DNA of 64,000 nucleotides, from NCBI RefSeq assembly GCF_018977255.1, contig NW_024704742.1:74278001-74342000 (forward strand), in the 5' to 3' direction. Shown here piece after piece: positions 562-62,164 of this stretch (the stretch's first letter is position 1; each line of letters opens with the position of its first letter). The DNA comes from Callorhinchus milii. Its lineage: Eukaryota. The position numbers and the translations under genes were made by a program. A model generated the notes under the pieces. It had not been told where the DNA came from, searched no databases, and worked only from the letters and a program-made list of their open reading frames with translations.

Positions 562-1409
562 TTAAGTAGCAGAATCCTTTATCAATTTGAATTACAAGGG
601 GCAGGGCAAGGTCCCAATCAGGTCCCAAGATCTCTATTCTGCAACATCATTAAGAAATGTATTTCCTTTCTTTGTTCTTTTTCTGACAACGTATTACAGT
701 GGAGCCTTGTTATAAGGTGGTAGTTGAGGTCCATTAATATCCCAATCCACCTCATAACGAGATCACAATAGCTGTTTTCACTGGGATTTGCATACCGGAA
801 GCCAAAATGGCAGCTTCTGGGTCATCAAGTCTCCATTGATGTAATTTCTTGTGCACTTGGTATGTGCAGTGTCCAGGAAGTGACTTAGGTGGAGGTCTAT
901 TGACCCACAAGTTGACCATCTAAAGCACAGGAGCAGGTTGGCATGTGGGAAGTGAGCTGGCTGTACACATGCAGAGTGACTGGGGCCCACACCCCATTTC
1001 TGTTATAAATGAACCAGTCCTATGAAGAAGTAACCTGTGCTATAATACAGTGCAATTTTGTACATTATGAACACCAACCTTGTGCCATACAGAAATCCCT
1101 TACAGTATAGATGCACTTTTCGCCTGCAGAACCACCACTTTAAAGATTGTCTTATTCCAACGTATTGTTCATTTTGACTGAATGTCTTCTAAGCTGTTGG
1201 GTAGAAGGTTTAACAGATGTGCACCAATTATAAAGAACATACAGTTTTTAATCCACTTTCTCATATAGTCTTTACTTCTGAAACTACTTAGACTACCCTG
1301 GGAGTGGTTTTGGGGACTCAAACCTATATCTTGCTATGTACATATTCAGCCATTATGAAGGGTTTCACTACACAGACTATCCTAGAAATACTTGAAATCT
1401 ATTTCACAG

Positions 1410-1573
1410 GATGACCTAGACCTTGATAGGAGCTCATTGCCTCGATCAACTAGTGGGAGAGGCTTTCCAAGGAGCCTGGATGATTCTGAGGATGAGGATG
1501 ATGAGGACAGTGGTCACAGCTCAAGGAGACGGGGTAGCAGCTCCAGTGGTGTGACCTATGAAGAATTTCAAGT
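1410..1573 (+). CDS. PKD2: Polycystin-2, third-last coding exon (cytoplasmic tail, acidic cluster)
   Basis: ttcacag acceptor, gtaagt donor, 164 nt; encodes [54 protein letters not shown], matching the polycystin-2 acidic cluster and RRRGS motif. Confidence 0.95.
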
Positions 1574-8344: not shown

Positions 8345-9450
8345 TTTTAAGAGGAGGAAGGTTTTCAGATGGGACTTGAAAAAGGGGAGAGAGGGGGCAA
8401 GGCAGAGGGATTGAAGGAGAGTGTTCCAGAGTTTTGGGGCGTAGCGGCTGAAAGCGCGACCTCCAGTGGTGGGGCGGAGGGTGCGAGGGACGAGCAGGAT
8501 GCCGGTGCCAGTGAAGCAGAGGGACCGGGTGATGGATTGGGGAGTGAGGAGAGGTAGGGAGGTGCCAGGGAGTGAATGGATTTGAACACGAGTGTGAGGA
8601 TCTTGAAGTCGATCCGTTTGGTGATGGGGAGCCAGTGAAGCCTGGCCAGAAGTGGTGAGATGTGGGTACGGAGTTTGTTCCGGGTCAGTATGTGGGCGGC
8701 AGAGTTCTGAATGAGCTGGAGTTTTTGCATAGTGCAGCTGGGGAGACCGGCGAGGAGAGCATTTGAGTAATCCAGGCGGGAGGTGACAAACACATGCACG
8801 AGGGTTTCGGCTGCATTTGGGGTGAGGTACGGTCAGAGACAGGCAATGTGGTGGTGGTGGAGGAAGGAGGTCCTGGTCAGGGACTGGATGTGGGGGAGGA
8901 AGGACAGCTGGAGGATGAACTGGACGCCTAGATTGTGCACTGGTTCAGTGAGTCTGAGGGAGAGCCCAGGGAGGTTGAGGAGTTTAGATTCGCAGAAATG
9001 AAGACATTGATGGGAGCCAAGGAGTATGTATGGCTTCTGTCTTGTCCACATTCAGCTGCAGGAAGTTAGCACTCATCCAGGCCCTGATGTCTGCCAGACA
9101 AGCTGATAGAACATCGATGCTGGAGGAGGCAAAGTAGATTTGTGTGTCATCCGCATATGTGTGGAAGTTGACCCCTTATCTGGGGATCACATCACCCAGA
9201 GGGAGCATATAGATAAGGAAAAGAAGGGGGCCAAGGATGGATCCCTGGGGTACCCTGCTGGTGACCGGCAGGGCCTGGAGGAGAAACCATTTGCCGAGAT
9301 GAAGTGGAGGCGGTTGGTTAAGTAGGACTCAAACCATGTGAGTGTGGTCCCACTAAGGTGGATTAGAGAGGCGAGGTGGTGGAGGAGAATGGCGTGGTCG
9401 ACTGTCAAAATGCGGCAGAGAGATCCAGGAGGACGAGGAGTGAGAGGGTT
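8345..9450 (-). mobile_element. L2-clade LINE ORF2 fragment, decayed
   Basis: Minus-strand ORFs VDHAILLHHL..., HVFVTSRLDYSNALLAGLP...LQLIQNSAAHIL...LHWLPI...FKILTLVFK, typical of the L2 RT C-terminus; frameshifted. Confidence 0.9.
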
Positions 9451-9639: not shown

Positions 9640-10090
9640 GGTTACACACTACAACTCACCAAGCCAGTTAGGAACCTAGGTGTCTTGTTCGACCCGTAAC
9701 TGTCTTTTCTTCCCCACATCAAAGCCATGACCCGCTCTGCCTTCCCTCACCTCTGTAACATCGCCCGACTCCGCCATTACCTCACTCCTCAGGACGCTGA
9801 AACTCTTGTTCGTGCCTTCATTGCCTCCAGGTTCGAGTATGCAAATGTCCTGCTTGTCGGCCTTCCCAACTTCTCCCTCCACAGGCTGCAGATAATCCAG
9901 AACTCTGCAGCCCATGTCCTCTCCCGCACCAAACTCCGTGATCCCATCTCCCCCATTCTCGCCCGACTCCATTGGCTCCCTATCCTTCAGAGGATCCAGT
10001 TCAAGATCCTGGTCCTCACCTACAAAGCCTTCCATGGCCTCGCCCCACCCTACCTCTGTGACCTCCTAACCCCCTATCAATCCACCCGTG
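9640..10090 (+). mobile_element. L2-clade LINE ORF2 fragment
   Basis: NIARLRHYLT...AFIASRFEYANVLLVGLP...QNSAAHVL...LHWLPILQRIQFKILVLTYKA. Confidence 0.9.
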
Positions 10091-10209
10091 TGTTTCCTAT
10101 TTTAATTCCTATTTGTAGTGTCTTATATTTATCTTTATTAAACTTCATTCAGTTACCAGATGCACAAATCTCTAAAAATATCTACATAGGAAGGTAGGAT
10201 TATTTTTAA

Positions 10210-32879: not shown

Positions 32880-33625
32880 CGTGCAACTTCCTGCAGCTGA
32901 ACGTGGACAAGATGGAAGCCATATTCATTGGCTCCCGTCAACGTGTTCACTCCTGCGAATCTGAACTCCTCAACCTCCCTGGGCTCTCCCTCAGACTCAC
33001 TGAACCAGTGCGCAATCTAGGCATCTGGTTCAACCCCCAACTTCCACCTCCACCACATTGCCTGCCTCCGATCGTACCTTACCCCAAATGCAGCCGAAAC
33101 TCTCGTGCATGTGTTTGTCACCTCCCGTCTGGATTACTCAAATGCTTTCCTCAACGGTCTCCCCAGCTCCACTATTCAAAAGATCCAGCTCAATCAGAAC
33201 TCTGCCGCCCACATACTGACCCGGACCAAACTCTGTACCCACATCTTACCAGTTCTGGCCGAGCTCCACTGGCTCCCCCTCACCAAACGAATCGACTTCC
33301 AAGATCCTCACACTTGTGTTCAAATCCCTTCACTCCCTGGCACCTCGCTACCTCTCCGACCTCCTCACACCCCAATCCACCACCGGGCGCCTCTGCTCAA
33401 CTGGCACAGGCCTCCTGCTTGTCCCTCGAGCCCTCCACCCCACCATCGGAGGTCGCTCCTCCAGCCACTACGCCCCGAAACTCTGGAATGCTCTCCCTCA
33501 ATCCCTTCGCCTTGCCCCCCTCCCTCACCCATTATCACCAGCTGAATGTCCAGTACTGTCCATGTAAAATGCTTTGAGACATGACCCTATGTGAAAGGCA
33601 TTGTTGTACAAATGCAAGTCGTTGT
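32880..33625 (+). mobile_element. L2 LINE 3' fragment
   Basis: HVFVTSRLDYSNAFLNGLP...LHWLPL...; IGGRSSSHYAPKLWNALP; frameshifted. Confidence 0.9.
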
Positions 33626-34600: not shown

Positions 34601-35601
34601 TTTTTTGTTTAATTATTGTTTATTATTAAACCTTGTTTAAAAAGAGGTTATCTTATTAACTGAGTATTTTAGCAGGAAAAGAATATATGGTGAAGGTGCA
34701 GCATATATTTTACAGAATTTTCAAATAAAACATTTAATATTACCTTCTGTTTATTTATCTGAGATGCCAAATATGACTTAAATGTGGAACAAGCTAGTTT
34801 TTGCAGTTCCAGAAATGTTTAATTTTGCTTCATGTCCATGGAAAACGGCTTCAAGACATTATTTAAACTCACCATCACCTTAGCATAGCACATTTGCCTC
34901 TGGAGTATAAACTTATAGATTCAAGTCTCATATCAGCACTTGAGCTCACTGTCCAGGCTGTTTTAGTGAAGATTTTGATTTCTGAACATTTGCTGAATTT
35001 ATGCACTGGTATTTATTTAACAGCCACTTCTCTACTGTCAGTCTGACTCAGCTGATGGCATTCTTTGAATCAGAATCAAGCCCATGACGGGACCTTAAGC
35101 TCATAGTTTAGGTTAATACTCCAAAGCAATGCTTGGTGAGTGTTGAATTGTCAGAGGTTTATCTGTGTATAATTGTGAATTGAATAGACGTCAAGTGAAT
35201 ATTCTGATCAATGGGGACTAAAATGTAGTTATTACAACTTGTAGATTTACTAGGATAATACCAGGGCTGGCAGGTTACTGCTATCAGATAGACTGGATAG
35301 GTTATGCCTTTTTCACTAGAGAAGCAAAGTTTAAGGGGAGACCTAATAGAAGTGTTTAAAATTATAAAAGCATTCAATAAGGTAAGAAAGCTTAGGACGA
35401 AGAAGGTCATTCAGCTCAATTGATTGCATGCTTCCATATTACCTACCCTATCACCTTCCAATTCCAGCATTGTATTGTTCTTAAGTGAGTCTTGCACCAT
35501 TCCTGGAAACCCATTCTGATGTTGATTCCCTGTGTATTTCTGCCTGCGCTGCTTGAGATGTGATTCTACCATTGTTTTGCTGCAGGTGACTCCACAGCAA
35601 G

Positions 35602-35655
35602 ATGAGAACCATCATTCTAATTGTGTGCCTGATAGGCACAGCTCTCGCCAGCCCA
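35602..35655 (+). CDS. SPARCL1: SPARC-like 1, first coding exon (signal peptide; exon starts at 35586)
   Basis: tgcag acceptor, 16 nt of 5' UTR, ATG; MRTIILIVCLIGTALA-SP = 16-aa signal peptide plus 2 aa; gtgagt donor, phase 0. Confidence 0.9.
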
Positions 35656-36131
35656 GTGAGTGTCACTTTCTCCAGATAAAAATATAATCTTTACTCAACT
35701 CTAATATTCTGAACTATTTGTGAAATGAATATTCATCAAATGAATATTCTGAGTGATAGGGTCGAAAATGTGGTTTTACTAAAAAAAAAGTACTCCAAGT
35801 GAGACTCCTTCCAGTGATAGGAAATACATCACATTAACCCACAGCAACTACACTCTGAAGGTAGTCTGAGTTGGAAGGTATTGGATTTCTCACAAATTAG
35901 TGTGATTACCATAAAGAGTCCCAAATTGTGATTTAAGAAATTCCTGTGAACTGTTTTAATATAATAATAATAATCCTAGCATTTGATATAGCACTCTATC
36001 ATATCGTTGAGACATCTCAAAGTGCAGCACAGAAATATATCATATATTCAAAGATAATTATTGTAATAACTTCATACATTAAAATCAACTTCCTTGCTGT
36101 CATGTTTTACAATCACTGTTTTCATTTTCAG

Positions 36132-36170
36132 ATCCGCAAAACTCGAGATGTGAGCAGTGAGAGTATAGAG
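36132..36170 (+). CDS. SPARCL1: SPARC-like 1, 39-nt mini-exon (IRKTRDVSSESIE)
   Basis: ttttcattttcag acceptor, gag|gtaatt donor, phase 0/0, ends in S-x-E motifs. Confidence 0.8.
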
Positions 36171-36617
36171 GTAATTCTGTGACTCTGTTATGATGGTTTA
36201 TACAAATGTGGTTTTGTTCAATTAATTTACATTCAACCCAAAAAGCTTGCAGAATGACTCTTTTTTCAGTGTTTAGAGTATGTGTCCACAGTTGATTTCT
36301 CCATCAACATAAGCACCGTTGCTGCATAATGACAGATGTTGTGAAACTCACAGATCAGGAGGAGAGGGATGAGGGATCTGGGCAAGAAACAGGACAACTA
36401 GAAGAGTTACAGCCAGTGTTTCTGTGCTTTCAGAAGCTGCTGGGTCTGGAACCAGGAGAAGGGAATGCGTTCCTGGGGAGAGAGTATAATAATTTGATAT
36501 AGTGCCTTATCACGTCTTAGAGATGTCTCAAAGCCCTTCACAGAATATCTGAAGTGAATTGACCGTATATTTTGTGGGTGAAACACGGCAGCCAATTTCG
36601 CACAGAATTGAACATTT

Positions 36618-37121
36618 ACCCGGGGAGTGGGAGCAAGAACCTGGGGGGAGAGGGAGCAAGAACCTGGGGGGAGAGGGAACAGGTACCTGGAGGGAGAGAG
36701 GGAGTGGGTACTCGAGGGGCAGAGAGGGAGCGGGTACCAGGGGTGGGGGGTGGAGAGGGAGCGGGTACCCAGGGTGGGGGGAGTGGGTACCCGGCGGGGA
36801 GAGGGAGCGTACCTGGGGGGGAGAGAGAGGGAACGGATACCTGGGGGGAGAGGGAGCGGGTACCCGGGGGGGGGGAGAGAGAGGGAGCGGGTACCTGGGG
36901 AGAGAGGGAGCGAGTACTGGTTGGGGAGAGAGAGGGTGTGGGTACCCGGTGAGGGAGGAGAGGGTGGGTATCCGGTGGGAGGAGAGAGGGAACGGGTACC
37001 TGGGGGGTGGGGGAGAGGGAGTGAGTACCTGGAGGGGGAGAGAGTGTGGATACCCGGGGAGGGAGAGGGTGTGGGTACCCTGGGGGTGGGGGAGAGAGTG
37101 TGGGTACCCGGGGGGAGAGAG
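36618..37121. repeat. G-rich minisatellite (~22-28 nt units, core gggtacctgggggagagggag)
   Basis: About 20 imperfect tandem units with strong purine/G strand bias; source of several spurious overlapping ORFs. Confidence 0.9.
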
Positions 37122-37563
37122 AGTAGTCTGATACACAGAGAGAGAGGAGAACCTGCCTGGGAAGCAGATGTTTACACTTTTGAATACTGACATGTCACAG
37201 TCCAAAATCATAGTTTATTGTAGACAGAAGTGAAAGTTAAAGTATGTAACCACCCTTACACAAATAGGGATAAACCGGTTTTCATTATTTTTTCAGGGAG
37301 GAAATTCAGACAGTGATGAGGTAAGGAATTATTCAGTGTATTTGCGTGTGTTAAATTGCATGCAGATTGAATAATGAATACTGATAGTTCGACCGTCCCT
37401 CCCCTCGCCTCGGCTTCATGCTCCGCCACTGTCAAGCTCTCTGAGGCGCTAGCCTGCATGAGGGGCGTGATATAAACGCAAGTTGTTGTTGTTAATAATG
37501 CTGGTTCTTCATCTTGCTGCAGACAGTGAGGCACTTTGTAATGTTCTGTCTGTGTATTTACAG

Positions 37564-38322
37564 ATGAACCCCTTGGTTGATCAGCAGTACTTTCTCTATC
37601 CACGTAGATCCCATTCTCAAATCCCTTCACGGCCTAGATATTACCCAGAGGTTTTCCCTGCTGTACCTCCTGAATATTCCCCTTACCACAGCAAATCTTA
37701 TCAGCCTTTTCATTCCCAATACTTTGCAAGGTATCCTGATTACGCTCAACAGCCTTTCTATTCTGATTACAATGAACACCCAGGGTCTATGGTGTATGAC
37801 AGTTATCCGTACAAGTACCATCTCTTCCCTTTGATAAAGAGGATTCATAATCTGGTAGCATATCGTCTGGGGCACCATTCTACAGGCAACAGATTTGGGG
37901 CCATCCGTGAGAGTGCTCCACAGGTCACACCAAGCAGTATGGAAAACACTAGAACTGAGAAACCCATGGAGAATATCACTCCTAGAATACCAAGCCTGGA
38001 TGGTATCTTCATGTATAACAAACCAAATGAGGTCCCGCATGTTTCTGAGCACAATACTGAGCTTGCCCACTTCACTGGGAACTACCTTGAGCAATCGACA
38101 GATGAAATAACTGATGAAGAAGATCCATATGATGTTCTACGAAACTCTGACTCCATAGGGGTGGAACATTTTCGGTCATCCGGAATTGACATTAGTTATG
38201 AGCAAGTTGGCCACGATATTACCTCTTCAGAATCAGCAGATGAAACCTTGAATAATCAGGAATTGGAAAGTCAAGGAGTGTCTCAGGTAGATTACGTGGA
38301 TGATGACAATGAAACGAATAAG
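37564..38322 (+). CDS. SPARCL1: SPARC-like 1, Tyr/Pro/Gln-rich then acidic exon (253 aa)
   Basis: tttacag acceptor, open phase-0 frame of 759 nt, aag|gtattt donor (alternative cag|gtagat after 38286); lies between other exons of the gene in compatible phase. Inclusion in the mRNA is inferred. Confidence 0.75.
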
Positions 38323-38367
38323 GTATTTTTACTCCTTCAATATACAACGAGTCAAATAAATCCCAAG

Positions 38368-39197
38368 CTACAACAACAACAACAAAATTACATTTGTAAA
38401 GCTCTTTCACGTCGGGAGGACGTCCCAAGGCGCTGGATAGACAGAGTTACGGATCTGAGCTGGGAGTCGGGGGCAGGGTGGGGAAGCAGGGAGATCAAAA
38501 GCATAGTTGAAGAGGAGGATCTTGAGATGGGTCTTGAAGGGAGGGGGCGAGGCGGAGGGACTGAGGGATGGAGTTCCAGAGGGTAGGGGAAGATTGGCGG
38601 AAGACCCGCCCGCCAATAGTGGGGTAAGCGAGATGGGGGACGTGAAGGTGAATTAAGCAGGCTGAAGCCGCTGAGCGGAGGGAGCGAGTAGGATGGTAGG
38701 GTGTTAGGATGTCACAGAGGTAGGGGGAAGCAAGACTGTGGAGGGCTTTGAAGGTGAGGACCAGGATCTTGAACTGTATCCTCCGTGTGATGGGAAGCCA
38801 GTGGAGTTGGGCAAGGATGGGGGTAATAGGGTCACAGAGCCTAGTGTGGAAATTCACAGGCTGCAGAGTTCTGGATGATCTGCACCCTATGGAGGGAGGA
38901 GTTGGGGAGGCCGACAAGCAACGAGTTTGCGTAGCCGAACCTCGATGTAATGAAAGCATGTTTGAGGGTTTTGGTGGCCTGCGGTGTGAGACAGTGGCGG
39001 AGCCGGGCAATGTTGTGGAGGGGGGGAAGGCAGAGTGGGTCATGGCGCAGATGTGGGGTAGAAAGGATAGTTGAGGGTCAAACAAGACCCCAAGGTTCCG
39101 GACTGACTTAGTAAGGTGAAGTGTGCAACCATGGATGGTGATGCTGTCAGTGCTTGAGTGAGGGGGCGCTGACGGGAGCCAATCGGGAGAGCCAAAG
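38368..39197 (-). mobile_element. L2 LINE 3' fragment with (TTG)n tail
   Basis: VRNLGVLFDPQLSF...LHWLPITRRIQFKILVLTFKALH...IGGRVFRQSSPTLWNSIP. Confidence 0.9.
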
Positions 39198-39462
39198 TAA
39201 TAATAACATGCCAATTAGCCATAGAGTAATGCACCACAGTATATGTTAAAATAATTAGCAAATATTGATGGTGCCGGGGAAGGGAGGGTTTGGCTTAATG
39301 AAGGAGATGTGCCTGGCAAAGTGAGGCAAGACCTCAGTAAAGTGAACAGAAGTTGATCAATGACCAGTCTGTCTGGCTCATCAATGAGAGGGAAGTTTGA
39401 AATCCCTGATGATTTTGAAAGTGATTGGAAACCATGTGCGGTTACCATTGTTGTTTGTATCC

Positions 39463-39731
39463 AATTCCAGGCACAGGGCGAAACCTTGGGCAAGTTTCCT
39501 TACTCCACACGCCTAATAATAATCCCTCCAAAACTAAAAACAATAATTAAATTGGTCATTTTCAATCTACGACTGTTTGTGGGACATTGCTGTGCGCAAT
39601 TGGCTGCCGCGTTCGCCCACAAATATACAGTCAATTCACTTTACAGTGTGTTCTGTGAAGCGCTTTGGGACGTCCTCCCGACATGAAAAGCGCTATATCA
39701 AATGCAAGGATTATTATTATTATTATTATTA
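39463..39731 (+). mobile_element. tRNA-derived SINE (5'-truncated)
   Basis: Near-identical to the copy at 7680-7949. Confidence 0.85.
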
Positions 39732-39997
39732 ATTGGAAGGTTGTGTTTTCACACCTTTGGCTCTGGCTCACTGGGCTCAGGTGTAACAGTGCACCAGGTG
39801 TCAGTTTCCCACTCACTATTTCTGCTTCAGGCATTGTGTGTGAGAACTGGTTGAATTAAATTGTGGACTAGAGCTAAATGATGCTGTGGTTTTCAGCACC
39901 AGCAAAGAGCATCATGATTCTGGATGTATTCTGTGCTAATCTCACAAACTGTATATGGTTTCAGCATTGTGATGGGATGGTTTCTCTCTGTCTGTAG

Positions 39998-41230
39998 GCA
40001 CAGGACATCAGGACTGAGTCAGTACAAATGACTGACAGCGACAGCAGAGGTGATTCCAGTGAGAGCAACACTTCTGAATCCACTGGGGATGGAGATGAAA
40101 ACAGAGTGGAACAGAAAACTGATCTCAGAGTGGAGTCCACTGAGGATAACACAGCCGAGGACACTGAAGACAGTGAGGATGAAGATAGCAAAGCTGACCT
40201 GAGAAACAATGTCATTGATGACGACAAAACTGATTCCAATGAAGACTATGATAATGACGATGGCAAAGCTCACTTGGGATCGGAGTCCACTGAGGATAAC
40301 TCTGATGAATCCACTGAGGATGATGATAATAGCAAAGCTGACTTGATGGTTGATTCCAATGAGGATAACTCAGCTGAGTCCAATGAGGACAGTGATGAAG
40401 ATAGCGAAGCTGACCTGAGAATGCAATCCATTGAGGACAGCACAGCTGAGTCTACCAAGGACAGTGATGAAGATAGCGAAGCTGACCTGAGAGGGCAATC
40501 CATTGAGGATAGCATAGCTGAGTCCAATGATGACAGTGATGAAGATAGCGAAGCTGACCTGAAAGTGCAGTCCATTGAGGACCTCACAGCTGAGTCCAAT
40601 GATGACAGTGATGAAGATAGTGAAGCTAAACTGAGAGTGCAATCCACTGAGGACAGCACAGCTGAGTCCACTGAAGACAGTAATGAAGATAGCGAAGCTG
40701 ACCTGAGAGTGCAGTCCATTGAGGACCTCACAGCTGAATCCAATGATGGCAGTGATGAAGATAGCGAAGCAGACCTGAGAGTGCAATCCCCTGAGGACCT
40801 CACAGCTGAGTCCAATGATGACAGTAATGAAGATATCGAAGCTGATCTGAGAGTGCATTCCCCTGAGGACCTCACAGCTGAGTCAATGATGACAGTGATG
40901 AAGATAGCAAAGCTAACCTGAGAGTGCAGTCCATTGAGGACCTCACAGCTGAGTCCAATGATGGCAGTGATGAAGATAGCGAAGCTGATCTGAGAGTGCA
41001 ATCCCCTGAGGACCTCACAGCTGAGTTCAATGATGACAGTGATGAAGATAGCGAAGCTGACCAGAGAGCGAGGTTGATTGAAGACAACACATCTGAGTCC
41101 AGTGATGACAGTAATAACAACAGTGCTAAACAACCTGAACTGAATGCTGATTCCAGTGCTTTGAAGTATGATGAGTCTAATGAAGGTGACAGCAATGAGT
41201 CAAATTCTGCACCAAGAAGCCTACAGGAAA
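39998..41230 (+). CDS. SPARCL1: SPARC-like 1, large acidic Asp/Glu/Ser exon with RGD and 72-nt tandem repeat; 1-nt frameshift near 40884 in this sequence
   Basis: tctgtag acceptor (phase 0), a|gtaagt donor (phase 1, matching the next exon); ORFs 40028-40921 and 40924-41349 carry the same repeat in two frames. Confidence 0.85.
40112..41120 (+). repeat. Coding tandem repeat, 72 nt / 24 aa, ~14 units (SEADLRVQSIEDLTAESNDDSDED)
   Basis: agcgaagctgacctg recurs at 40403, 40475, 40547 etc. Confidence 0.92.
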
Positions 41231-41392
41231 GTAAGTGTCACATCAAGTGGGCTTTTCCATTAATAACACATAAAGCGAGTGTGTTAAATTTGCTGACTTA
41301 TCTGGTCCTTTTCTCTTCAAGTCAGAATCACTGCTGGGAATGCCACTAATTTATTTTTACAAATTGTAATTGTAATTTTATTTAATTCATAG

Positions 41393-41514
41393 ACCCATGT
41401 AATAACCATCCTTGCAAACGTGGAAAGGTCTGTGAGCTGGACAATGAAGGGAAGCCCATGTGTGTTTGCCAGGACACAAGCACCTGTCCTGCTAGTACCA
41501 CTGACTCTCAGCAC
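41393..41514 (+). CDS. SPARCL1: SPARC-like 1, follistatin-N (EGF-like) exon
   Basis: [41 protein letters not shown]; ag/gt boundaries, 122 nt. Confidence 0.95.
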
Positions 41515-42667
41515 GTGAGTGTTTGTTATCACAATAGCAAAGTCTAGTGAAACAAAAGAATTAAACAAACATTCACTGCTTTATTTCAGATCATGGTTTC
41601 ATCACTGGCACAATTTTCGACTCTGTTACCAACATAATATGCTGGGTGCCAGGGTAAATACTAATTCAAAACACACATCATCTTAACAAAAATATGAATA
41701 TTAATCATGAAAAGCCAATAAACTACATGCAGAGAGTTCTGTGTGTTCTCTTCCAGACTGCTCTGGTGCCAAACAATACCATCTTTTAAGGAAACCACTC
41801 ATTGCAACCCATTCACCTCTTTCCTGAAGGGGACCAGGAAACGTCCCATGGTGTGACGGTTGTTTCTCTGAGCACCAGTCGGTACCATGACTGTTTACTG
41901 ATGTTCTCGGTGACTTTGGGGTCCTCAAACTTTAGGATTCTCCCAAAATCCCTTGGTAGTTGAGCCAATCTTATGAACTAATCTTATGCTGTGATTCATG
42001 AACTGAATCAATACCAACTGGTTTGGACTACTGCTTGTAAGCAGAATTTGGAAAAGGAAAGTTAATAAAATAAATATGATTTCATGGGTTTATCTGATAA
42101 AATACAAAGAACCGATTCTTTTATATTCTTATTCGGGATCTTGTTAGCGCTGAATTGGTTCCAAGGTGACATGCCTGGCAACAGATTGTTGGAATCAAGC
42201 CAGCCCTCTGTGGTGTCCCAGTAGACCAGGTCCTAAGTCAGGCACTTTCGCAGTATTCCAGGGCACTGCTGATGACAGCACAGCCCAGCCTGGCTCATCT
42301 ACAGGACCCGGAGAGGCAGACCAGTCACTGGAGGCAGAGAGTCATCCCACTCAGCTCCTGTTAATCCTGCAAGCCAAAGCCCTAACAGGTCAGGTGTTCC
42401 TCACTGGACAAGGAGTGGGAAAGCTTGCCGAACACCAATATCAATGGCAAGCTATGTGGTTTTAGCTGGTTAGACTCCAGCAATACCCCAACGCATGCTC
42501 TGGGGTCCCCAAGCCAACCCGCAAGAAATATTCAATCAAGAAAATGTATTTTGTTTTGCCAACCATACAGGTTGGCCACCACTGTTCTAGGGATTATGTT
42601 AGTTTGTCCATAGTTGCTAAACTTCAACATTTTTCCTTGTATTATTAAACAATTTGTTTTTTTCCAG

Positions 42668-42788
42668 GTGTGTGGCACAAATAACCGAACCTATGAAAGC
42701 TCTTGCCAATTCTTTGCCTCCAAGTGCATTCTTGAAGGAACAAAGAAGGGACACGGACTCCACCTGGACTACTTTGGGCCCTGCAAAG
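42668..42788 (+). CDS. SPARCL1: SPARC-like 1, Kazal exon
   Basis: [40 protein letters not shown]; 121 nt, ag/gt. Confidence 0.97.
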
Positions 42789-43189
42789 GTAAGTTTGTAA
42801 TGCAAGAAGTGTCTAAGGTCCAAATTATTAAGCACATGGAGTTTGTAACGATTCCATAACTATCCAGGTTTCAATATTTTCATTTATCATAGATTTAAAT
42901 TAAGATAAGACTGTTACAATAATCTACTATGCAAATAATGTACATAATACAACAGGAGTGGATGTATCTTATTGGTACCTGTAGGGACTTTGACTAATCT
43001 GTGCTTTGATATGTCATTCTAAGAACAAATTGCTTCGCCAATACAGTACCATAGTATTAGCAGCAATACGATTTTCTCACCTGAAATATATTGCATTGAA
43101 TATGGTGCAAGGAAAACAATTAGCTACTTCTTTAAACAGACAGTCTAATTTGCAATGATACAAAATATGCTTCATGTATTAGCTTGGTT

Positions 43190-43540
43190 AGTTTGGTTCA
43201 GTTGGTAGCTCTCTTGAAACTCTGTGGGTTCAGCCCTCAGCAGGATCTAGGTTGAGATAATATTGATGAAGTGCTGCATTGTAAAAGGCACTATCCTTTT
43301 GGTGAGATATTAAACAAAGGTCCTGTATGTGTTGAGGTGGACATTAAAGAGCAGGGAGTTCTTTGAGTATCCTGTCCCAATATTCCTCCCTCATCCAACA
43401 TTCACAAAACTATGAATTGATTATTTTTTGTCATTGTCATTTCAATTATGTTATGGGTACAGATTAGCTGCCAGGTTTGCCTATATTTCAACCGTCAAAA
43501 TAGCTCACTGCATAAAATGTTATGTCAAATGCAAGAATTA
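43190..43540 (+). mobile_element. Deu-domain SINE, decayed
   Basis: ggttcagttggtagctctc head; gagatattaaacaaaggtcctgt..aggtggacattaaaga core. Confidence 0.55.
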
Positions 43541-43652
43541 AAAAAAATCTGATTTTTGAAGAATTCGGTGGCCTTATTAATTAAATTACATCTATACAAA
43601 ATTTACATTGAAAAAATGAGGCTTTAACATGGTTTATTTTGGTTCTTTCTAG

Positions 43653-43789
43653 ACACAGCTCCATGCCAGGATAATGAATTGCTTCAGTTCCCTTTGCGGT
43701 TACGTAATTGGCTGAAGAATGTCCTAATGCAAATGTACGAGCGCGATCTTCAGATCCCTGGAATCCTTACTGAAAAACAGAGAAACAGA
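43653..43789 (+). CDS. SPARCL1: SPARC-like 1, EC domain exon (alpha-A helix)
   Basis: [46 protein letters not shown]; 137 nt, ag/gt. Confidence 0.95.
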
Positions 43790-44594
43790 GTGAGTTGTGT
43801 TGGTTTTGTTCTTCTTTAGTACTTGACTAAATACCAATTGGGAGTTTCATTTTAAACTCAGTTAGATCATCAATCATTCAGGTTGGTCAGATCGTCAGAT
43901 GAAAGAAAAACTTATCATTAACCCTGCTTTAAAAATGTACCTCAAAAATCCCAGTTTTAGGGTATTATCTCCAATTATGCACCACGGTGATCTCTTCTAT
44001 TAAGATCTTTGTCTTTTGGGAATAAGATTAAAGCTACCTAAATTTACCAAGACATTAGACTTTCTGAGAGAGAAAATTCTCATCTCAACTGTTTGAACCA
44101 AGTTTCAGATCTCTTCAATGCATTAATGTTCTCATATCACACTATAACCAGTGTTTCTTGTCCCTATTTATTGATTTCCTTATTACTTCACTCATTCACA
44201 TCTGCATCCTTCCTCAGAAGATGAGATCACACAGGTTGGAAGGCAGGGGTCTCTGAAATCAATGCTCTTCCAGAATTCAACAAGCAATAACCATGAAACA
44301 GTGAAACAAGACTGTCAATTCACCCCACTTGGATCATTGCAAAAGTGAGGAGTAATAGCCACTGGAAGATATTGAGGAAGTGCCTTAAATACATTGATTG
44401 CACATCATAGGCTACATGAGGATTGATTTGAAGGATCCATAAAAGGATTTACAAATTGTGAATCCTGCAGGTGACCCAGATTAGAACTTGCCCCGACCCG
44501 GTTCGGGACAAATATTAACTCAGTGTTTTCAGCAATAGAAGGCGAACATTGTGTCTGAGCTACTACTAACTTTAAAAAAAATCAATATTCCATA

Positions 44595-44725
44595 ATCTTA
44601 AATGTTTTTAATGCATTTATCCAGTAACCCTTTGAATGATTTTATTGATCCAGCCTCAGTGGACACTTGTAATAATGAATTCAACACACTGACAACCCTC
44701 TGAATGAAGAAACTTTGCCCATCTT
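44595..44725 (-). mobile_element. Short CR1 3' fragment just upstream of an exon acceptor
   Basis: Minus strand FFIQRVVSVLNSL...EAGSIKSFKGLLDK. Confidence 0.7.
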
Positions 44726-44768
44726 TTTCTGTTAACAGTACAATTATGGCACAATCCTTTGTTTGTAG

Positions 44769-44914
44769 GTTAAGAAAATTTATGACAGTGAGAAGAATCT
44801 TCATGCTGGTGACCACTTATTGGATCTGCCTTACAGTGATTTCAAGAATTATTATTCATTCATCTATCCAGTTCACTGGCAATTCAGACAGCTGGACCAG
44901 CATCCAACTGATGG
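44769..44914 (+). CDS. SPARCL1: SPARC-like 1, EC domain exon (into EF-hand 1)
   Basis: [49 protein letters not shown]; 146 nt, ag/gt. Confidence 0.95.
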
Positions 44915-45755
44915 GTAAGAAGGAACAAGCTTTATATTGACTTTCTTTTTCTGCTATTCCATTTTTAATTGGAAAACATAGGAAATTAAACTCAAGAGTA
45001 GGTCATTTGGTTCATCAAACCAGTTCTGCTATAAACCATTCTATGTACAACAAACAATCCATGACTTTCTGGGACAGTGATAGATTCTTATTCCTTTATA
45101 GGAAGAGATTTTCTTGGTCATAATCAGTTTTTTTTTTAATCCCAATTTTAAACCCATGTCTGCTTTAACTGATGGACTCACCAGGGGAAAAGTCAATTTG
45201 AGATTGGGTGGAGTTGCATCTGGGCAGGGTGGTAAAGGCGAGCATGCTAGACACATTTACGAAATGGCTTGAGCTTGATGGTCTAATGAGAAGATGGTAG
45301 GTTGGGGATTCATCAAAGACGAGTCTAATTAAACTGAAGGGCCATGTCTCACTTGTATATTACAAACTGAATTCAGTCCAATTACAATTTGGATGGCTAT
45401 TTTCCTTTGGTCAGTGTTGTTCATTAGTATTATGACTGCAACAATTTGCATTTCTATAGACCTCTGCACGTGGGGTAATGTTTTGGAGTACTTCATGATG
45501 TCTGACAACATCAGATGAGTAGTGAAGTCTCATCGTGATTGATAAATCCATCTATTTTACAACGCACTTATATATACAATATGCACACAAGATAGCATCT
45601 CAAAGCATTTTACAAGGCTAGTGTTGGTCTCTGAGCGGGGGTGGGGGATTTGAAAAAAANGTGCATATTTTTCAATGTGTACCAGGCACATGAATGACCA
45701 AAAATATTTGTTGTACTGTGCCATAGAACTCACAATGCTTTCATTCTCATTCCAG

Positions 45756-45904
45756 TTATCTCAGCCATTCTGAGCTGGCTCCCCTTCGTGCTCCATTAGT
45801 TCCTATAGAGCACTGCACCTCCCGATTTTTCACGCAGTGCAACACTGATGGTGACAGATTCCTCTCTTTGAGAGAATGGGCTCACTGCTTTGACATCAGT
45901 GAAG
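45756..45904 (+). CDS. SPARCL1: SPARC-like 1, EF-hand exon
   Basis: YLSHSELAPLRAPLVPIEHCTSRFFTQCNTDGDRFLSLREWAHCFDISE; 149 nt, ag/gt. Confidence 0.96.
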
Positions 45905-46324
45905 GTGAGAAGAGTCATACAGTGAGATTATTTCATCCTCATGAACTGTTAACATTTAATATTTTTATTCATGTTCAAAACTTGCACTTCATATAGAGTA
46001 CATTTATTTCAGTAATTGAAATCTTTGATAATCCATTTAATTCATTGTGTTTTGTAGTATTGTTCGGAATCTAGATTGACCTCCCTCTTTTTACAATTAC
46101 AGCAAAAAGATTAATAAAGGACGGGGTGTGGTCTCATTCACAATTGAATTGGACAACGCCAATGTTGTATAAATATATTACTTTAATCTTCCCAGTGGAA
46201 ATGAGGGATGTGATGCTGTCAGTAGGTGGAATATTAGTGTTGCAGACAGAGTTGAAGAGATAAGGCAAAAAGCTATAATGGACAAAGTAATGCGACTGAA
46301 ACTGCCAAGTCACCAGTCCTTGGG

Positions 46325-47130
46325 GATTAAGAGATTGTCATAGTCAAGCCTGGAGGTGATGAAAGCATGGTTAAGGATCTCAGTGGCCGGAAGGGAGAGG
46401 AGGAGCTGGGCAATTATGCGAAGGTGGGGGAAAGATGAATGGGTCAGGGCACGGATATGTGGTTTTCAAAGCAGTTGAGAATTGACCGAAGTTCCCCACT
46501 AGCTCTGTGAGGTGCAGTGTGCATCCATGTAGATTGATGCTGTCGGAGCCTGAAGTGAGCAGGCGCTAACGGGAGCCAATCAGGAGAGCCTCGGTCTTGT
46601 CAACATTCAACTGGAGAAAGTTAGCTCTCAACTAGAACTTGATGTCTGACGGACAAACGGTAAGAACAGCAGTGGTCTTGGAGTCGAGTAGCAGGCAGAG
46701 ATAGAGTTGGGTGTCATCTACTTCCATGTTAACCTCATGCCTGCGGATGACATTGCCAAGTGGGAGGGTGCAGATATTAAAGAGAGGACCGAGTATAGAG
46801 TCCTAAGAATACAAGTGGTGGTGCAAGGGCAGGAGGAGAAGCTGTTGGCAGATACGAAGTGGAGACTTTGGGATTAGGTAAGAATGAAATCAGCAAAAGA
46901 CAGAAACATGAAGATGGAGCTGAGAGGAGAATCGGTGGAGAAGGATAGAATGGTTAACAGTGTCGAAGGCAGCAGAGAGATCAAGAAGAATGAGAGAGAG
47001 ATCCCTGGTCACAGGAAGGAGGGATGTCATTAGTGACTTTGATCAGTTTCGATACTGTGGCAGCATAGAAGCCAGATTGGACGAGTTTGCTCATAGGTTA
47101 GAGATAGGAATTTGTTAGGCAACAGGGATG
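46325..47130 (-). mobile_element. L2 LINE RT fragment, decayed
   Basis: Minus strand LILLDLSAAFDTVNHSILLHRF..., LGPLLF, LQLNVDKTEALLIG remnants. Confidence 0.8.
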
Positions 47131-47252
47131 GGTCGAGAGACTACCCACTAATTTCAAGTCGCATAGCAAATTAAACAGTAGTTTTAAAAAAAACATTTTA
47201 CTAAATTGATAAGTATTTGTATTGAAGAAATTCCTGTTCCTTTCTCTTACAG

Positions 47253-47281
47253 AAGACATTAATCCTGATCTTACCTTCTGA
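47253..47281 (+). CDS. SPARCL1: SPARC-like 1, last coding exon (EDINPDLTF*)
   Basis: tttctcttacag acceptor, phase 1; SPARCL1-type C-terminus; TGA followed by TGA TAA; AATAAA at 47529, 47731 and 47818. Confidence 0.92.
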
Positions 47282-50220: not shown

Positions 50221-50689
50221 CAAACAACAAAAAACATTTCAATGAAATAATGTAGCATGAGCATCTCATAAAAGACACAGAGTTATGCAGGAGCAAGATG
50301 TTAGGAATGAGGTGAGGTAAATGTAAACAGGATGAATAAATATTACAGACAGCATCATAGAATTTGCAGCATCTGTTCACCAAAACACAGCCACCTAACA
50401 GAGGACAAAACAGGATTATCAGCAAAAATAGAATAGTCATAAAAACATTGAAGAAACTGGCAACCCATCTAAACCAAAAGTTTTTACTATTTTGTGAAAT
50501 TTACCAAACAGTGAAGTAACTGTTCAGTTTTTATTTGCTTATGGCTTCTGGGTGTAGAGAACACATATTTGCTTAAAAAGCCGAGGTCAAATCAAAATGT
50601 GTGCAAATGAAATACTTTTTTGCTTGGATACAGACTACAGAAATACATATTCTTTTGAACTGTCAACAGTGTCTAGGCCTTCAAACATC

Positions 50690-51337
50690 CATTCTTCCTC
50701 ATCCACGGTCTCACACCACAGGCCGCCAAAACTGTCATACATGCACACACTGAGGCTTGACTATGCAAGCTCCTTGCTTGTCAGCCTCTCCAACTCCTGC
50801 CTCCACAGGCTGCAGATCATCCAGAACTCTGCAGCCCATGTCCTCTCCCACACCAGGGTCCGTGACCCTATCACCCCCATCCTTGCCCAACTCCACTGGC
50901 TTCCCATCACACAGAGGATACAGTTGAAGATCCTGGTTCTCACCTTCAAAGCCCTCCATGGTCTTGCTCCCCCCTACCTCTCTGACCGCCTAACCTCCTA
51001 ACATCCTGCCCACTCCCTCCGCTCAGCGAGCTCCGGCCTGCTTCACGTCCCCCACCTCACCCGCCCCACCATTGGCGAGCCGGCCTTCTGCCACTCTGCC
51101 CCCACCCTCTGGAACTCCACACCGCAGTCCCTCTACCCCCTCTCTTGCCTCCTTCAAGATCCATCTAAAGACCCTCCTCTTTGACCATGCTTTTGATCTC
51201 TGATTCCCCGCCCTGCCCTCCACCCTACCCAAACCTGACCCCCAGCTCGGGTCCGAAACTCTGTCTGTCCAGCGCCTTGGGAAGTCCTCCCGACATGAAA
51301 GGCGCTATAGAAATGTAATTTTGTTTTTGTTGTTGTT
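50690..51337 (+). mobile_element. L2 LINE 3' end with (TTG)n tail
   Basis: RLDYASSLLVSL...LQIIQNSAAHVL...LHWLPITQRIQLKILVLTFKALHGLAPPYL. Confidence 0.9.
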
Positions 51338-51654
51338 CGTACACTGGAGATCAACCACTATACCATTTTACAAAGCAATGCTTTGCACAGGAGCTTCTTC
51401 CAACAACCGTTGCTTTTATGTTGTGCCTTTTATGTCGGGCGGTGTCCCAAGGTGCTTTCCTTTCATTTCTATTCAGAAACGGTTTTGTCATTTATGATTC
51501 TCCCACTATCCGTATTCTTTAATTGTGTGAACAGGAAGAACATTTGGTAGTATTGATTACATGAGGACACAACACACTGATTGATAATAATAATGAACAT
51601 TACTGCTCAATCTAGCAAGGTAGAAATAATGGCACCAGAGATTTGTGCTCATCA

Positions 51655-52385
51655 CAGCAACTAGCATTGACATAGCACCCTCCATGCAGGGAGTGTCTCA
51701 GAGCACTTAACAGTGATGGAGCAGGACTCCGAGCCGGGGGGGGAGAGGGAGGTGACAGTAAACAAGTCAAAAAGGTTTTCAGGCGGGGCTTGACAAGGGG
51801 AAGGGGGAAAGGCAGAGGGACTGTGTTCCAAAGGGAGAGTGTTCCAAAGTTTTGGGACGTAGTGGCTGAAAGCGCGACCTCCAATGGTGGGTCAGAGGAT
51901 GCGAGGGTCAAGCAGGAGGCTGGTGCCAATCGAGCGGAGGCACCGGGTGATGGATTGGGGAGTGAGGAGGTCAGAGAAGTAGGGAGGTGCCAGAGAGTGA
52001 ATGGATTTGAACAGAGTGTGAGGATCTTCAAGTCGATCCGTTCGGTGATGGGGAACCAGTGAAGCCTGGCCAGAACTGGTGAGATGTGGGTACGGAGTTT
52101 GGTCCGGGTCAGTATGCGGGCGGCAGAGCTTTGAATGAGTTGGATTGTTTGAATAGTGGAGCTGGGGAGACTGGCGAGTAGAGCGTTTGAGTAATCCAGG
52201 CGGGAGGTGACAAACACATGAAGAAGGGTTTCGGCTGCTTTGGGGTAAAGTAGTTGGAGGTGGTAGAAGCCGGTCCTAGTCAGGGACCAGATGTGGGGGA
52301 AGAAGGTCAGCTGGGGGTCGAATCGGACGCCTAGTTTGCGCACTGATTCAGTGAGGCTGAGGAGAGCCCAGGGAGGTTGAGGAAT
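51655..52385 (-). mobile_element. L2 LINE 3' fragment
   Basis: HVFVTSRLDYSNALLASLPSSTIQTIQLIQSSAARILTRTK...; same subfamily as 8345-9000. Confidence 0.9.
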
Positions 52386-52947
52386 CACAATGTACCAAAT
52401 ATTGAAGCAGATATTATTCTAATAGGGAGTTAAAAAGAGATGGTTTACTTTGGCCCATCTTTCTTGCGACCTAAATGTGCCCAAATGTTTTGGTTTCTTG
52501 CAATTTTTGATTTAACTGTGGAAAAAAGATCAGCACATTTGATGAGATACAGAGAATGCTTTCACTGTGCACAACGAAAACATTGTTGGTTATAGCCAAT
52601 CTTCTCCCAACAACTAATGCTGTATTAGGCAAGCCGTAGCAAAGTTCAAGCTAACAATGCCTACTCACATCATGATGTTTCACTTTCCTATTTAATGTAC
52701 TTTAACCCGATTTTTCTGCCTCTGTGCATTTAAAATTATGTGTTTAATCTACTTCTGTGTGATTATTTGTACAATTAAAACACTATTCATGTAGAAAATT
52801 AATGATATACTTATGGATATCGTACTAACTCATAACTCATTTTCAGCTAAAAATAGTATTGGTTATAGTCCCTCAGCCCTGAAAGACCACATGTTATTGA
52901 TGGAATGGCCATGAATGTAGGCTGCAGCATGTGGCATCATAATATAA

Positions 52948-59344: not shown

Positions 59345-59422
59345 TTAGTTGAGGTCATCCTCATCATCATCTTCTTCATCGTCATCTTGGTCAACGGAAT
59401 CCAAGTCATCTTCGTCTTCAAC
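59345..59422 (-). CDS. USO1: General vesicular transport factor p115, last exon (acidic tail)
   Basis: ttatacag acceptor; VEDEDDLDSVDQDDDEEDDDEDDLN then TAA; p115 acidic C-terminus. Candidate minus-strand AATAAA at 58220-58225 and 58156-58161. Confidence 0.9.
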   Translation of the reverse strand, partial: VEDEDDLDSVDQDDDEEDDDEDDLN

Positions 59423-60518
59423 CTGTATAAAGGAAAGATATTCTTTTGTCACTGTATTTAAAATGCATGAGGCTGACGTAACTTGCACTTATTTATAGCT
59501 GTACATGCAATGGGAAGATCACCAGTGCCATGTACGAGTAATGGTACAATTTCACAACTTTTAGGTACAGACACAATGTTTTACCTGGTTGAAGTGTGCA
59601 TTTAGGAGTCTCTAATGTCTAGCTTCAGACAAACTGCAATTTTGTTCTCCAGCTACAGACAATCAAGATATTTCTTTCTGCTCTCCACCCAACTGAGCGA
59701 TTGCAAATTACAGATCTAACAATTTAAAATTATGTGAGTTCTCAGCAAATTCAGCAGAGAGGCTTTAGCACTAAAAATTTCTGTACACATTAGACAGCCA
59801 GCAATATAATCGAACACTGTCAGTAGCAAAGTTGGTAACAGCTTTGTAACATATTGTTCTAAATACAAGGTGAGATCTTCTTCCTCTAAATTCAGTTCAA
59901 AACTGCTACCATTCTCATACTCAGACTAACAAAACCGAGCTGCAAGATAGCAACAAGATCTCATTGTATATATACTTAAAAGTTGTGAAATTACACACGG
60001 GGTGAGTTACTCCCCACACTGTACAGGTCAATCATGGCTCAGCAATTTCTCAACCCTCAATCATGTTCGGAACTGGATTTTTTTTTTTTAGACAAGTACC
60101 TCAAAAGTAGGGATTAATGAAAGGGGACCAGAATTAGAGAGAAAAAACGAAGAGTGAGAAAAATACAAAGTCATCATACTTTATAGAAAATTCTTTGAGA
60201 CGTTCTCCCAATGGGAAATGTGCTACACCAAACGTGAGGATTATTATTAGTTCAGTCACTACATATTTCAGCTATTCATTGAAGAGTGAATAGCACCCCA
60301 CTAATTAACGTACATCACTGAAATCATAAATAACAAACTAATGTATTTTGAAAGAAGCTCACATTAAGTGTGTCTCATAAGATAGCATATAGTTTATGAG
60401 ATGATATGGAATCAGCCTGAACTTGAATTATGTTCATGTTTCAGTCAATTAACCCAACATATAGCCTGTACTGGGCTCATTAGTGTGAATGTGGTGCAGT
60501 CTGACAAAAAATTTGGGT

Positions 60519-60817: not shown

Positions 60818-60991
60818 AAATTTAGCTTTCATTATAAGACAGATCAATCTGCATCCAAACAGTCAAGTATAAGTATAAGAATTCATAGACAATGTCTGAC
60901 CAACTGGCTGGAAATGTTAACCTCTTCTTTTCAGATGCGGATGGACCTGCTATAGATATGCAGATTTTCCTCTTTTTGGCTGGTATCATAC

Positions 60992-61207
60992 CTGTTCTCC
61001 AAGTTCTTTGAGTTTGTTTTTCAGTCCAAAGATTTTCTGGTCTTGGTCAGCCAGAAGCACAAGCAGATCATCCTGCTCTTTCTTTGAGTCTATGACATCT
61101 TGCTGCAGCTTGCTGTTTTCAGTTTGAAGGATGGCAACTGTACTGTTTGTTGACGCAAGCTGTTGATCCAGGGCACTCTTCTCTTCAGTCATGGCCTTCG
61201 TTTGGTC
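60992..61207 (-). CDS. USO1: p115, penultimate exon (C-terminal coiled coil)
   Basis: DQTKAMTEEKSALDQQLASTNSTVAILQTENSKLQQDVIDSKKEQDDLLVLLADQDQKIFGLKNKLKELGEQ; 216 nt, ag/gt; KKEQDDLLVLLADQDQK is diagnostic of p115. Confidence 0.96.
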
Positions 61208-62164
61208 CTGTATTTACATACAAGAAACAACATACAATATTATAGCACCTTATTTACTTCAAAATGTCTCAAAATGCCTCACAGTAATTCCTCTCAAATT
61301 CTATCTGCATCAGCAAGATCCCCAAATAACATGAAGTGAATGACCAGTTGATTTGAGGGAATGTTGAAAAGGGCACAGGAAGAAACTCCCTTCTCAAAAT
61401 AATATAATGAACTCACAGATCATTGTTTAACTTCTCATCCAAAATATGCAAGCTCCAACAATGCAGCATCTAACCCTATCCTAACCTAGACTGTCAATCT
61501 AGACAAGTCTTGAAGTGAGGCTTGTACCCAGAACAAAAAGTCTGCATTTGCAACAGCCTCATTAAACTCATAGCAAAGAAATGGGTGAAAACTCGATTGG
61601 AATGATGTCTTTCAACAACAAATTAAAGATTTGCTTATTAATACTAATTATTGCAGTCGAATATCATGCCCAAATATATTTATTATAACTCCACCGTATT
61701 TGCCCAAACTGATACAGACTGCTAACATTTTAGAAAGCATTTGATCACGCAAACAACTTCAGACAAGGGAATTAATTGATAAACTGATGTGTAATATACC
61801 ATTAAAACAGAAGGCAGATCGTGCAGCATGTATTGAGACAACAAGACTCAGTTTACTGAAAAATGAACCACAGAGCTACGTGGGTGTGTAACCCAAGCTT
61901 GAGTAATGGCTGTCCAATTAACTGGGGTTTAATTTCCACAAACAGTCCATTCTGGACCATGTTCATACCACATATTGACAAATGTCAGTTGAGCAGCATT
62001 TGTGAAAATAACATTATACCTCTGTAGATTACTACAGGCAAAGGCTGCAATCGTCCATCCGCCCTGGTGCCCGGACTGCCTATATCCTGCCCTGTTTAGC
62101 AAATCAGAGCTCACACTGAGCAATCACACAGTAAGGGTGCAATATACTGTATATACACAGTACA

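Follow-up and report, generated by a model that had tools for sequence, protein, structure and literature searches.

Positions 35586-47281 of a 64,000-nucleotide stretch of the elephant shark genome (Callorhinchus milii; contig NW_024704742.1, positions 74,278,001 to 74,342,000 of the forward strand; hereafter the window) almost certainly constitute a single sparc-L (SPARC-like 1) gene, whose 11 coding exons encode a secreted matricellular protein of 937 amino acids (aa). The gene, its exon plan, its acidity and density of S-x-E (SxE) sites, its repeats and its interpretation as a precursor of SCPP genes were already published between 2014 and 2022. An earlier note on this DNA, made from the letters alone, recognised the gene correctly; the gene is real and previously described, and it carries little weight as a discovery.

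The elephant shark genome was reported to contain Sparcl1 without SCPP genes, and Sparc and/or Sparcl1 were speculated to mediate mineralisation (Venkatesh et al., 2014). The chondrichthyan gene was named SPARC-L and placed as sister to osteichthyan SPARC-L1/L2, with conserved synteny to the osteichthyan SPARCL1 locus (Enault et al., 2018). The exon plan of C. milii sparc-L is drawn with its phases in figure 1 of a further study, and supplement S1 of that study holds an elephant shark Sparc-L sequence of 937 aa (Leurs et al., 2022). In situ data for sparc-L come from catshark and, according to the discussion of the same paper, from ray (Leurs et al., 2022). Set beside these accounts of chondrichthyan Sparc-L in C. 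milii, catshark and skate (Enault et al., 2018; Leurs et al., 2022), the window holds the same gene. Protein sequence, exon phases, acidic SxE-rich N-terminus, 24-aa repeat, and follistatin-like (FS) and EF-hand extracellular calcium-binding (EC) domains agree with the published C. milii Sparc-L, whereas one base of the repeat array is missing from the window assembly.

The product of coding exon 3 (37564-38322, 253 aa) is identical over its full length to residues 1-253 of an 898-aa C. milii protein (P0001; 100% identity), which identifies the window gene as the elephant shark SPARC-like gene. P0001 bears the UniRef name 'SPARC', is found in EukProt too, and has precomputed FOLN, Kazal and SPARC_Ca_bdg domains. 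Pfam places FOLN at residues 667-688 (E = 1.6e-8), Kazal at 690-744 (E = 1.3e-8 and 4.7e-8) and SPARC_Ca_bdg at 749-884 (E = 9.5e-31), all above the curated cut-offs. The product of the large acidic exon matches P0001 residues 254-664 save at a break in the frame. The exon chain was rebuilt from sequence, with borders, lengths and phases checked, and contigs from four public runs (X1, X4, X6 and X10) of 13 listed were placed on the window. The exons are as follows, the microexon standing outside the numbering.

35586..35655, forward strand: exon 1, with 16 nt of 5' untranslated region (UTR) and coding sequence 35602-35655 (54 nt, 18 aa); AG before, GTGAGT after
36132..36170, forward strand: coding exon 2, 39 nt and 13 aa, flanked by phase 0 at either end, two SxE sites
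37297..37320, forward strand: microexon, 24 nt, phase 0 on both sides, 8 aa (GGNSDSDE) with one SxE site
37564..38322, forward strand: coding exon 3, 759 nt, 253 aa; first ~94 aa Y/P-rich (16 Y), end moderately acidic
39998..41230, forward strand: large acidic exon (exon 4), 1233 nt in the window and 1234 in the intact frame, ending in phase 1
41393..41514, forward strand: exon 5, FOLN and start of Kazal, 122 nt; FOLN at P0001 667-688; X6 contig 23 covers 41393-41514 exactly
42668..42788, forward strand: exon 6, Kazal, 121 nt; Kazal at P0001 690-744
43653..43789, forward strand: exon 7, EC domain, 137 nt; SPARC_Ca_bdg at P0001 749-884
44769..44914, forward strand: exon 8, EC domain, 146 nt; in X4 contig 20
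45756..45904, forward strand: exon 9, EC domain with EF-hand, 149 nt; in X4 contig 20 and X6 contig 25
47253..47428, forward strand: exon 10, the last, with coding sequence 47253-47281 (29 nt, TGA stop) and at least 147 nt of 3' UTR

Ten of these exons had been listed by the earlier note, and all ten lie at the positions and have the lengths given there, every border being AG/GT; the proposed chain of ~929 aa nonetheless overlooked the 24-nt microexon, and the protein is 937 aa long. The microexon is preceded by a pyrimidine tract and AG (tttttcag) and followed by a GTAAGG donor, and its eight residues stand between exons 2 and 3 in the 937-aa Sparc-L-Cm sequence of supplement S1 (Leurs et al., 2022). 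Once the microexon is added and the missing position restored to the frame, the exons total 2814 nt, or 937 codons and a stop. The claim that the first three coding introns are of phase 0 was borne out in its phases and amended in its count: the gene has 11 coding exons, with four introns of phase 0 and, behind the acidic exon, one of phase 1. The 3' end has poly(A) signals at 47487 and 47529, and the contigs in the last exon reach 47401 (X4 contig 20) and 47428 (X6 contig 25). The assembly also contains a single N at 45660, within the intron before the 149-nt exon.

The two most 5' coding exons are recognisable from their shark counterparts. Exon 1 encodes an 18-aa hydrophobic N-terminus that resembles shark SPARC-L N-termini, with 6-9 of 18 residues identical to four of them; tblastn matches with shark signal peptides fall on 35586..35655, and the 18 residues would be cleaved as a signal peptide, judging from their sequence. 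Exon 2 has 6-9 of 13 residues identical to the four shark SPARC-L proteins, and the two exons together 13-17 of 31; the run SPIRKTRD across the joint of exons 1 and 2 is common to elephant shark and Heterodontus. A further, non-coding exon probably lies upstream of 35586, because an AG precedes the exon there, though none was found 5' of that position.

Several contigs connect the remaining exons, and they are transcript-like in that they skip introns. X4 contig 19 joins 38320 to 39996, that is, exon 3 to exon 4. X4 contig 20 (1022 nt) fits the window piecewise at the 3' end of exon 4, in exons 8-10 and in the 3' UTR, and its 380 further letters would correspond to exons 5-7, whose lengths (122, 121 and 137 nt) sum to that figure. 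X6 contig 24 joins exons 6 and 7, and X6 contig 25 joins exons 9 and 10. Contigs of X1 and X4 end their fit to the genome exactly at the exon 3 acceptor (37562), leaving 56 and 58 unplaced 5' letters, respectively, beyond it. A contig of X6 matches the window no further 5' than 37470, beginning 94 nt before the exon 3 acceptor, and has 255 unrelated letters ahead of that point; it may be chimeric or reflect an alternative upstream joint.

The acidic exon is built largely from a tandem repeat, and the frame is broken within it.

40119..41112, forward strand: tandem array of a 72-bp unit (24 aa) in 13.8 copies, 80% matches, Tandem Repeats Finder (TRF) score 1071
40880..40887, forward strand: 1-nt gap that breaks the frame at about 40883/4; the window reads GAGTCAAT and the repeat consensus GAGTCCAAT

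A regular expression picks out ten 24-aa units in this exon, and elephant shark Sparc-L was described as having a 24-aa acidic motif 11 times, with 26 SxE sites (Leurs et al., 2022). Much of the acidity of the N-terminal region is thus derived rather than ancestral, because it stems from a lineage-specific expansion of the 72-bp repeat, documented both by the array here and by the published motif (Leurs et al., 2022). The length that the earlier note recorded as '1233[+1]' reflects a genuine 1-nt frame break in the window sequence. A single X6 contig, the only contig over the break in the four runs, inserts a C behind 40883 and thereby restores the frame; none from X1, X4 or X10 covers 40883/4. 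P0001 is continuous across the break and has another residue there, F. The break is very probably an assembly error or an allele and not the mark of a dead gene, and a gap of this kind would make automatic annotation call a frameshift.

Several points weigh against a single intact gene. The window's own frame is broken in the acidic exon, and the lone X6 contig over the break could derive from a neighbouring repeat unit; it may be misplaced, since the units of the array are near-identical. None of the runs is recorded as RNA, which qualifies the description of the contigs as transcript-like, and the contig rows listed contain no joint of exon 1, exon 2 or the microexon. Exon 3, moreover, may be facultative, because a note in supplement S14 and the alignment in S11 of Leurs et al. 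suggest an exon-3-less model (Leurs et al., 2022).

The last of these points could be taken further, to a gene in which exon 3 is a cassette exon and the main product is an ordinary acidic SPARC-L of ~684 aa without the Y/P-rich module. Skipping exon 3, which has 759 nt and is of phase 0 at either end, would keep the frame, the published accession table equates the entry with 'XP_007890095 aa 1-39 + Ensembl aa 254-898', a chain that leaves out exon 3, and the S11 codon alignment has the microexon directly before the start of exon 4 (Leurs et al., 2022). Contigs of X1 and X4, however, contain exon 3 spliced at its acceptor, one of X4 joins it to exon 4, no contig joins 37320 or 36170 to 39998 among the joint rows listed, and a colinear exon is present in all shark SPARC-L proteins. 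A cassette exon 3 is therefore unlikely, if well worth bearing in mind.

That the gene is a pseudogene, or was inactivated in the sequenced individual by the frameshift in the repeat array, is very improbable. The broken frame does meet a stop ~11 codons after about 40883/4, but the break amounts to one missing base relative to the repeat consensus, the sole contig over the site restores the frame, and P0001, which comes from another gene model, reads through. The downstream exons are likewise intact, 62-69% identical to SPARCL1 proteins and present in spliced contigs.

Scarcely credible is a stand-alone SCPP-like gene made of the 5' exons, with the FS-EC exons on a separate sparc-L transcript. 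In its favour, elasmobranchs have an scpp derived from the sparc-L 5' exons (Leurs et al., 2022), and P0001 begins with the first exon 3 codon, which means that the chain is cut upstream of that exon in one gene model or more. Against it, the contigs that join exon 3 to exon 4 (X4 contig 19) and continue from there to the final exon (X4 contig 20) already contradict the separate transcripts raised as a possibility by the earlier note, exon 3 is linked to FS-EC in P0001 as well as in the published 937-aa sequence, each 5' exon is single-copy in the window by blastn and tblastn, and elasmobranch scpp lies tail-to-tail with sparc-L and not head-to-tail in front of it (Leurs et al., 2022).

The single sparc-L gene falls within the SPARC-L/SPARCL1 family and apart from SPARC. 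With the FS-EC part as query, the best 120 long matches are nearly all named SPARC-like protein 1, five sharks among them (61-69% identity), and the shorter matches are mostly SPARC with an identity similar to that of the long ones, for which reason a tree of FS-EC was required. The tree was built from 29 sequences hand-picked from 240 stored matches and rooted on three cyclostome rows, without an invertebrate outgroup. In it the elephant shark FS-EC joins five shark SPARC-L proteins (support 100/99), this group nests in a SPARC-L and SPARCL1 clade (95/92), and a separate SPARC clade (97/92) contains a skate SPARC. The description of the gene as SPARCL1-like, for which grouping of FS-EC with SPARC would have been fatal, is thus upheld by the Pfam domains (FOLN, Kazal and SPARC_Ca_bdg) and by a tree that sets the elephant shark FS-EC apart from the SPARC clade. 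A Latimeria chalumnae protein labelled SPARC (P0223) is placed in the SPARC-L/SPARCL1 clade of the same tree on a long branch (0.8), perhaps because a SPARC-L paralogue was mislabelled or the gene model is poor.

Osteichthyan SPARCL1 (hevin/SC1) and SPARC-L2 share with the elephant shark protein the order of signal peptide, acidic Cys-free domain, FOLN, Kazal and SPARC_Ca_bdg, together with 60-65% identity in FS-EC and the common clade (95/92). Their N-terminal domains, by contrast, cannot be aligned to that of the elephant shark, whose protein is longer (937 aa, versus 515-778 aa in most non-chondrichthyan matches listed) and has a higher SxE density.

The N-terminal domain is devoid of cysteine, as the earlier note had stated of ~695 aa before FS-EC: residues 19-695 of the 929-aa model hold no Cys, and neither do the products of exons 2-4 taken separately. 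D/E make up 36% and S 17% of the residues encoded by exon 4, which contains 31 SxE sites and a single RGD, and Pfam assigns no family to either half of the exon. Over the whole N-terminal region, 37 SxE sites in 701 aa give 5.3 per 100, close to the published 5.1 per 100 aa (Leurs et al., 2022).

Three modules had been proposed for this domain, one P/Q/Y-rich, one of acidic S-x-E type and an RGD. A Y/P tract, an SxE array and one RGD do exist, but the RGD is within chance. It stands alone at residue 309 of 937, and when the 664-aa N-terminal part was shuffled 20,000 times, 12% of the shuffled sequences contained an RGD. The tripeptide occurs in the N-terminal part of 6 of the 119 other long matches listed, and the sole other chondrichthyan RGD (Heptranchias) lies ~8-9 columns off in a MAFFT alignment of what is a low-complexity stretch. 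An RGD acting as a conserved integrin site was considered and is unsupported, given this frequency and the lack of column alignment with Heptranchias. Neither the RGD nor the tyrosine-rich tract was found described for elephant shark Sparc-L in the literature searched.

The tyrosine-rich tract occupies the start of exon 3, whose first 94 encoded residues include 16 Y and 16% proline and only 7% glutamine. By simple count, the richest 60-aa window holds 14 Y in C. milii and 11-15 in five shark SPARC-L proteins; such a Y-rich window is present in 5/5 shark SPARC-L and in 0/114 other long matches listed (1-4 Y each). This distribution suggests that the Y-rich tract may predate the holocephalan-elasmobranch split. 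A published table instead gives the Y-rich domain as absent from Sparc-L and Scpp is said to have 'acquired' it, while the composition tool of the same study flagged only D/E- and S-rich regions for elephant shark (Leurs et al., 2022).

Exon 3 as a whole has few detectable relatives. A word-based search for longer relatives gave one match among 618 candidates, and phmmer against 1.84 billion representatives likewise gave one; both were the gene itself. Pairwise BLASTP nevertheless finds exon 3 colinear with shark SPARC-L (E = 0.002 and 2e-5, 25-26% identity), and tblastn aligns it with shark SPARC-L over nearly its full length, with E-values that lack composition correction and are too optimistic. 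Because of this colinearity, exon 3 is an orthologous and much diverged SPARC-L exon and no imported SCPP module.

The relation to SCPP and SIBLING genes is accordingly one of likeness without detectable homology. A description of the N-terminus as a composite of SCPP/SIBLING modules captures the compositional likeness but overstates the case. Searched with phmmer against the 1.84 billion representatives, exon 3 showed no homology to SCPP or SIBLING proteins of bony fish; bony-fish Scpp was itself described as too divergent for alignment (Leurs et al., 2022). Three SCPP traits were examined. A signal-peptide exon, a small SxE exon and 5' phase-0 introns are present (exons 1, 2, microexon and 3), a trait that does not discriminate because SPARC-L itself has it. 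Kazal and EC domains, which an SCPP gene would lack, are not absent here: contigs connect exon 3 with exon 4, and exon 4 with FS-EC, and P0001 has all three domains. No separate gene of this kind adjoins sparc-L within the window, where blastn with the 5' exons found no second copy of any of them and tblastn with four shark SPARC-L N-terminal regions found none either, Scpp proteins not being among the queries.

Elasmobranch Scpp is alike in its signal peptide, small SxE exon, large exon that is Y-rich and then acidic, and phase-0 introns, and differs in lacking FS and EC domains and in being a separate gene that lies tail-to-tail with sparc-L, from whose 5' exons it derives (Leurs et al., 2022). 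Its PDYXXPXX repeat was reported absent from C. milii (Leurs et al., 2022), and a single PDY occurs at one place here. The premise that cartilaginous fish lack SCPP genes is outdated, because scpp was demonstrated in elasmobranchs (Leurs et al., 2022), and it holds for holocephalans only. The osteichthyan acidic SCPPs/SIBLINGs (SPP1, DMP1, DSPP, IBSP and MEPE) resemble the elephant shark protein in being secreted, disordered, acidic and rich in S-x-E Fam20C sites, with 5' phase-0 introns and in some cases an RGD (Venkatesh et al., 2014; Leurs et al., 2022). Elephant shark sparc-L, in contrast, retains its FS-EC domains, has no detectable sequence homology to them, and carries an RGD that is within chance and out of register with that of Heptranchias.

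A reading of the gene as resembling a pre-duplication SCPP ancestor matches the published conclusion that an acidic, SxE-rich N-terminus was ancestral to chondrichthyan Sparc-L and was passed on to Scpp (Leurs et al., 2022, citing Kawasaki et al., 2017, for acidity). It is tempered by the 72-bp expansion, to which much of the acidity in the elephant shark is due.

Beyond sparc-L, few features of the window are recognisable. Pfam was run on 97 stop-to-stop open reading frames (ORFs) of at least 75 aa outside the gene, and 2/97 gave any match.

60989-61213, reverse strand: USO1/p115-like C-terminal exon (Pfam Uso1_p115_C, E = 1.1e-10)
about 59348-59461, reverse strand: acidic D/E run like the p115 tail, downstream of the USO1-like exon (tblastn)
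2-646, reverse strand: reverse-transcriptase fragment at the window edge (Pfam RVT_1, E = 2.9e-12)

The ORF with Uso1_p115_C also gave a weak, sub-threshold Csm1_N match. The tail-to-tail neighbour of sparc-L appears to be USO1, and its exon is the sole recognisable neighbour in the window; between the two lies a repeat-rich spacer of ~12 kb in which no scpp was found.

Repeats account for several further observations. The intron that separates exon 2 from the microexon holds a G-rich satellite at 36620-37150 (units of 23-26, 54, 79 and 133 bp), which on both strands yields proline-rich ORFs without stops (192-254 aa), together with a local GC skew; these ORFs are repeat artefacts and non-coding. 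One interspersed repeat has copies at 8368-8832 (reverse), 9700-10194 (forward), 33021-33545 (forward), 38495-39214 (reverse), 50558-51001 (forward) and 51612-52418 (reverse), whose ORFs have a common peptide, '...LHWLPI..RI.FKIL.L..K..H.LAP.YL...'; Pfam assigns no family to these ORFs. Contig word depth at 39339-40005 and in other repeat bins is thousands of times exon depth. Far upstream, a short acidic/serine-rich stretch at 1395-1553 (forward) is matched weakly by N-terminal queries from shark SPARC-L (E = 0.7-4.7), which could be due to chance or mark an exon of a gene lying upstream.

The sparc-L product is a protein of four parts: a signal peptide, a Cys-free and disordered N-terminal domain of ~680 aa, a conserved follistatin-like FOLN and Kazal unit, and an EF-hand EC module. 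The N-terminal domain opens with the Y/P-rich stretch and continues as a very acidic, serine-rich region built mostly from the 24-aa repeat. By analogy with the family, its S-x-E sites may be phosphorylated by the Golgi kinase Fam20C after secretion, and the resulting polyanionic tail might bind calcium or calcium phosphate. The C-terminal module would bind collagen and calcium as in SPARC, and the protein might act in the hypermineralised odontode layer.

Gene models in the databases fall short of the full gene: the 898-aa UniRef/EukProt entry has no signal peptide, SxE exon or microexon. For the history of the family, the Y/P-rich tract of exon 3 may be an ancestral trait of chondrichthyan Sparc-L, common to holocephalans and sharks, from which elasmobranch Scpp inherited its Y-rich domain, and the ancestral gnathostome Sparc-L may then have combined Y/P and acidic SxE modules in one protein, in line with the earlier note, a proposal held tentatively, with the balance tipping slightly against it. 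If it is true, the Y-rich domain of Scpp came from Sparc-L, contrary to the acquisition stated by Leurs et al. (2022). A Y-rich tract common to elephant shark and shark Sparc-L would then slightly shift the published division between the traits that Scpp inherited and those that it acquired.

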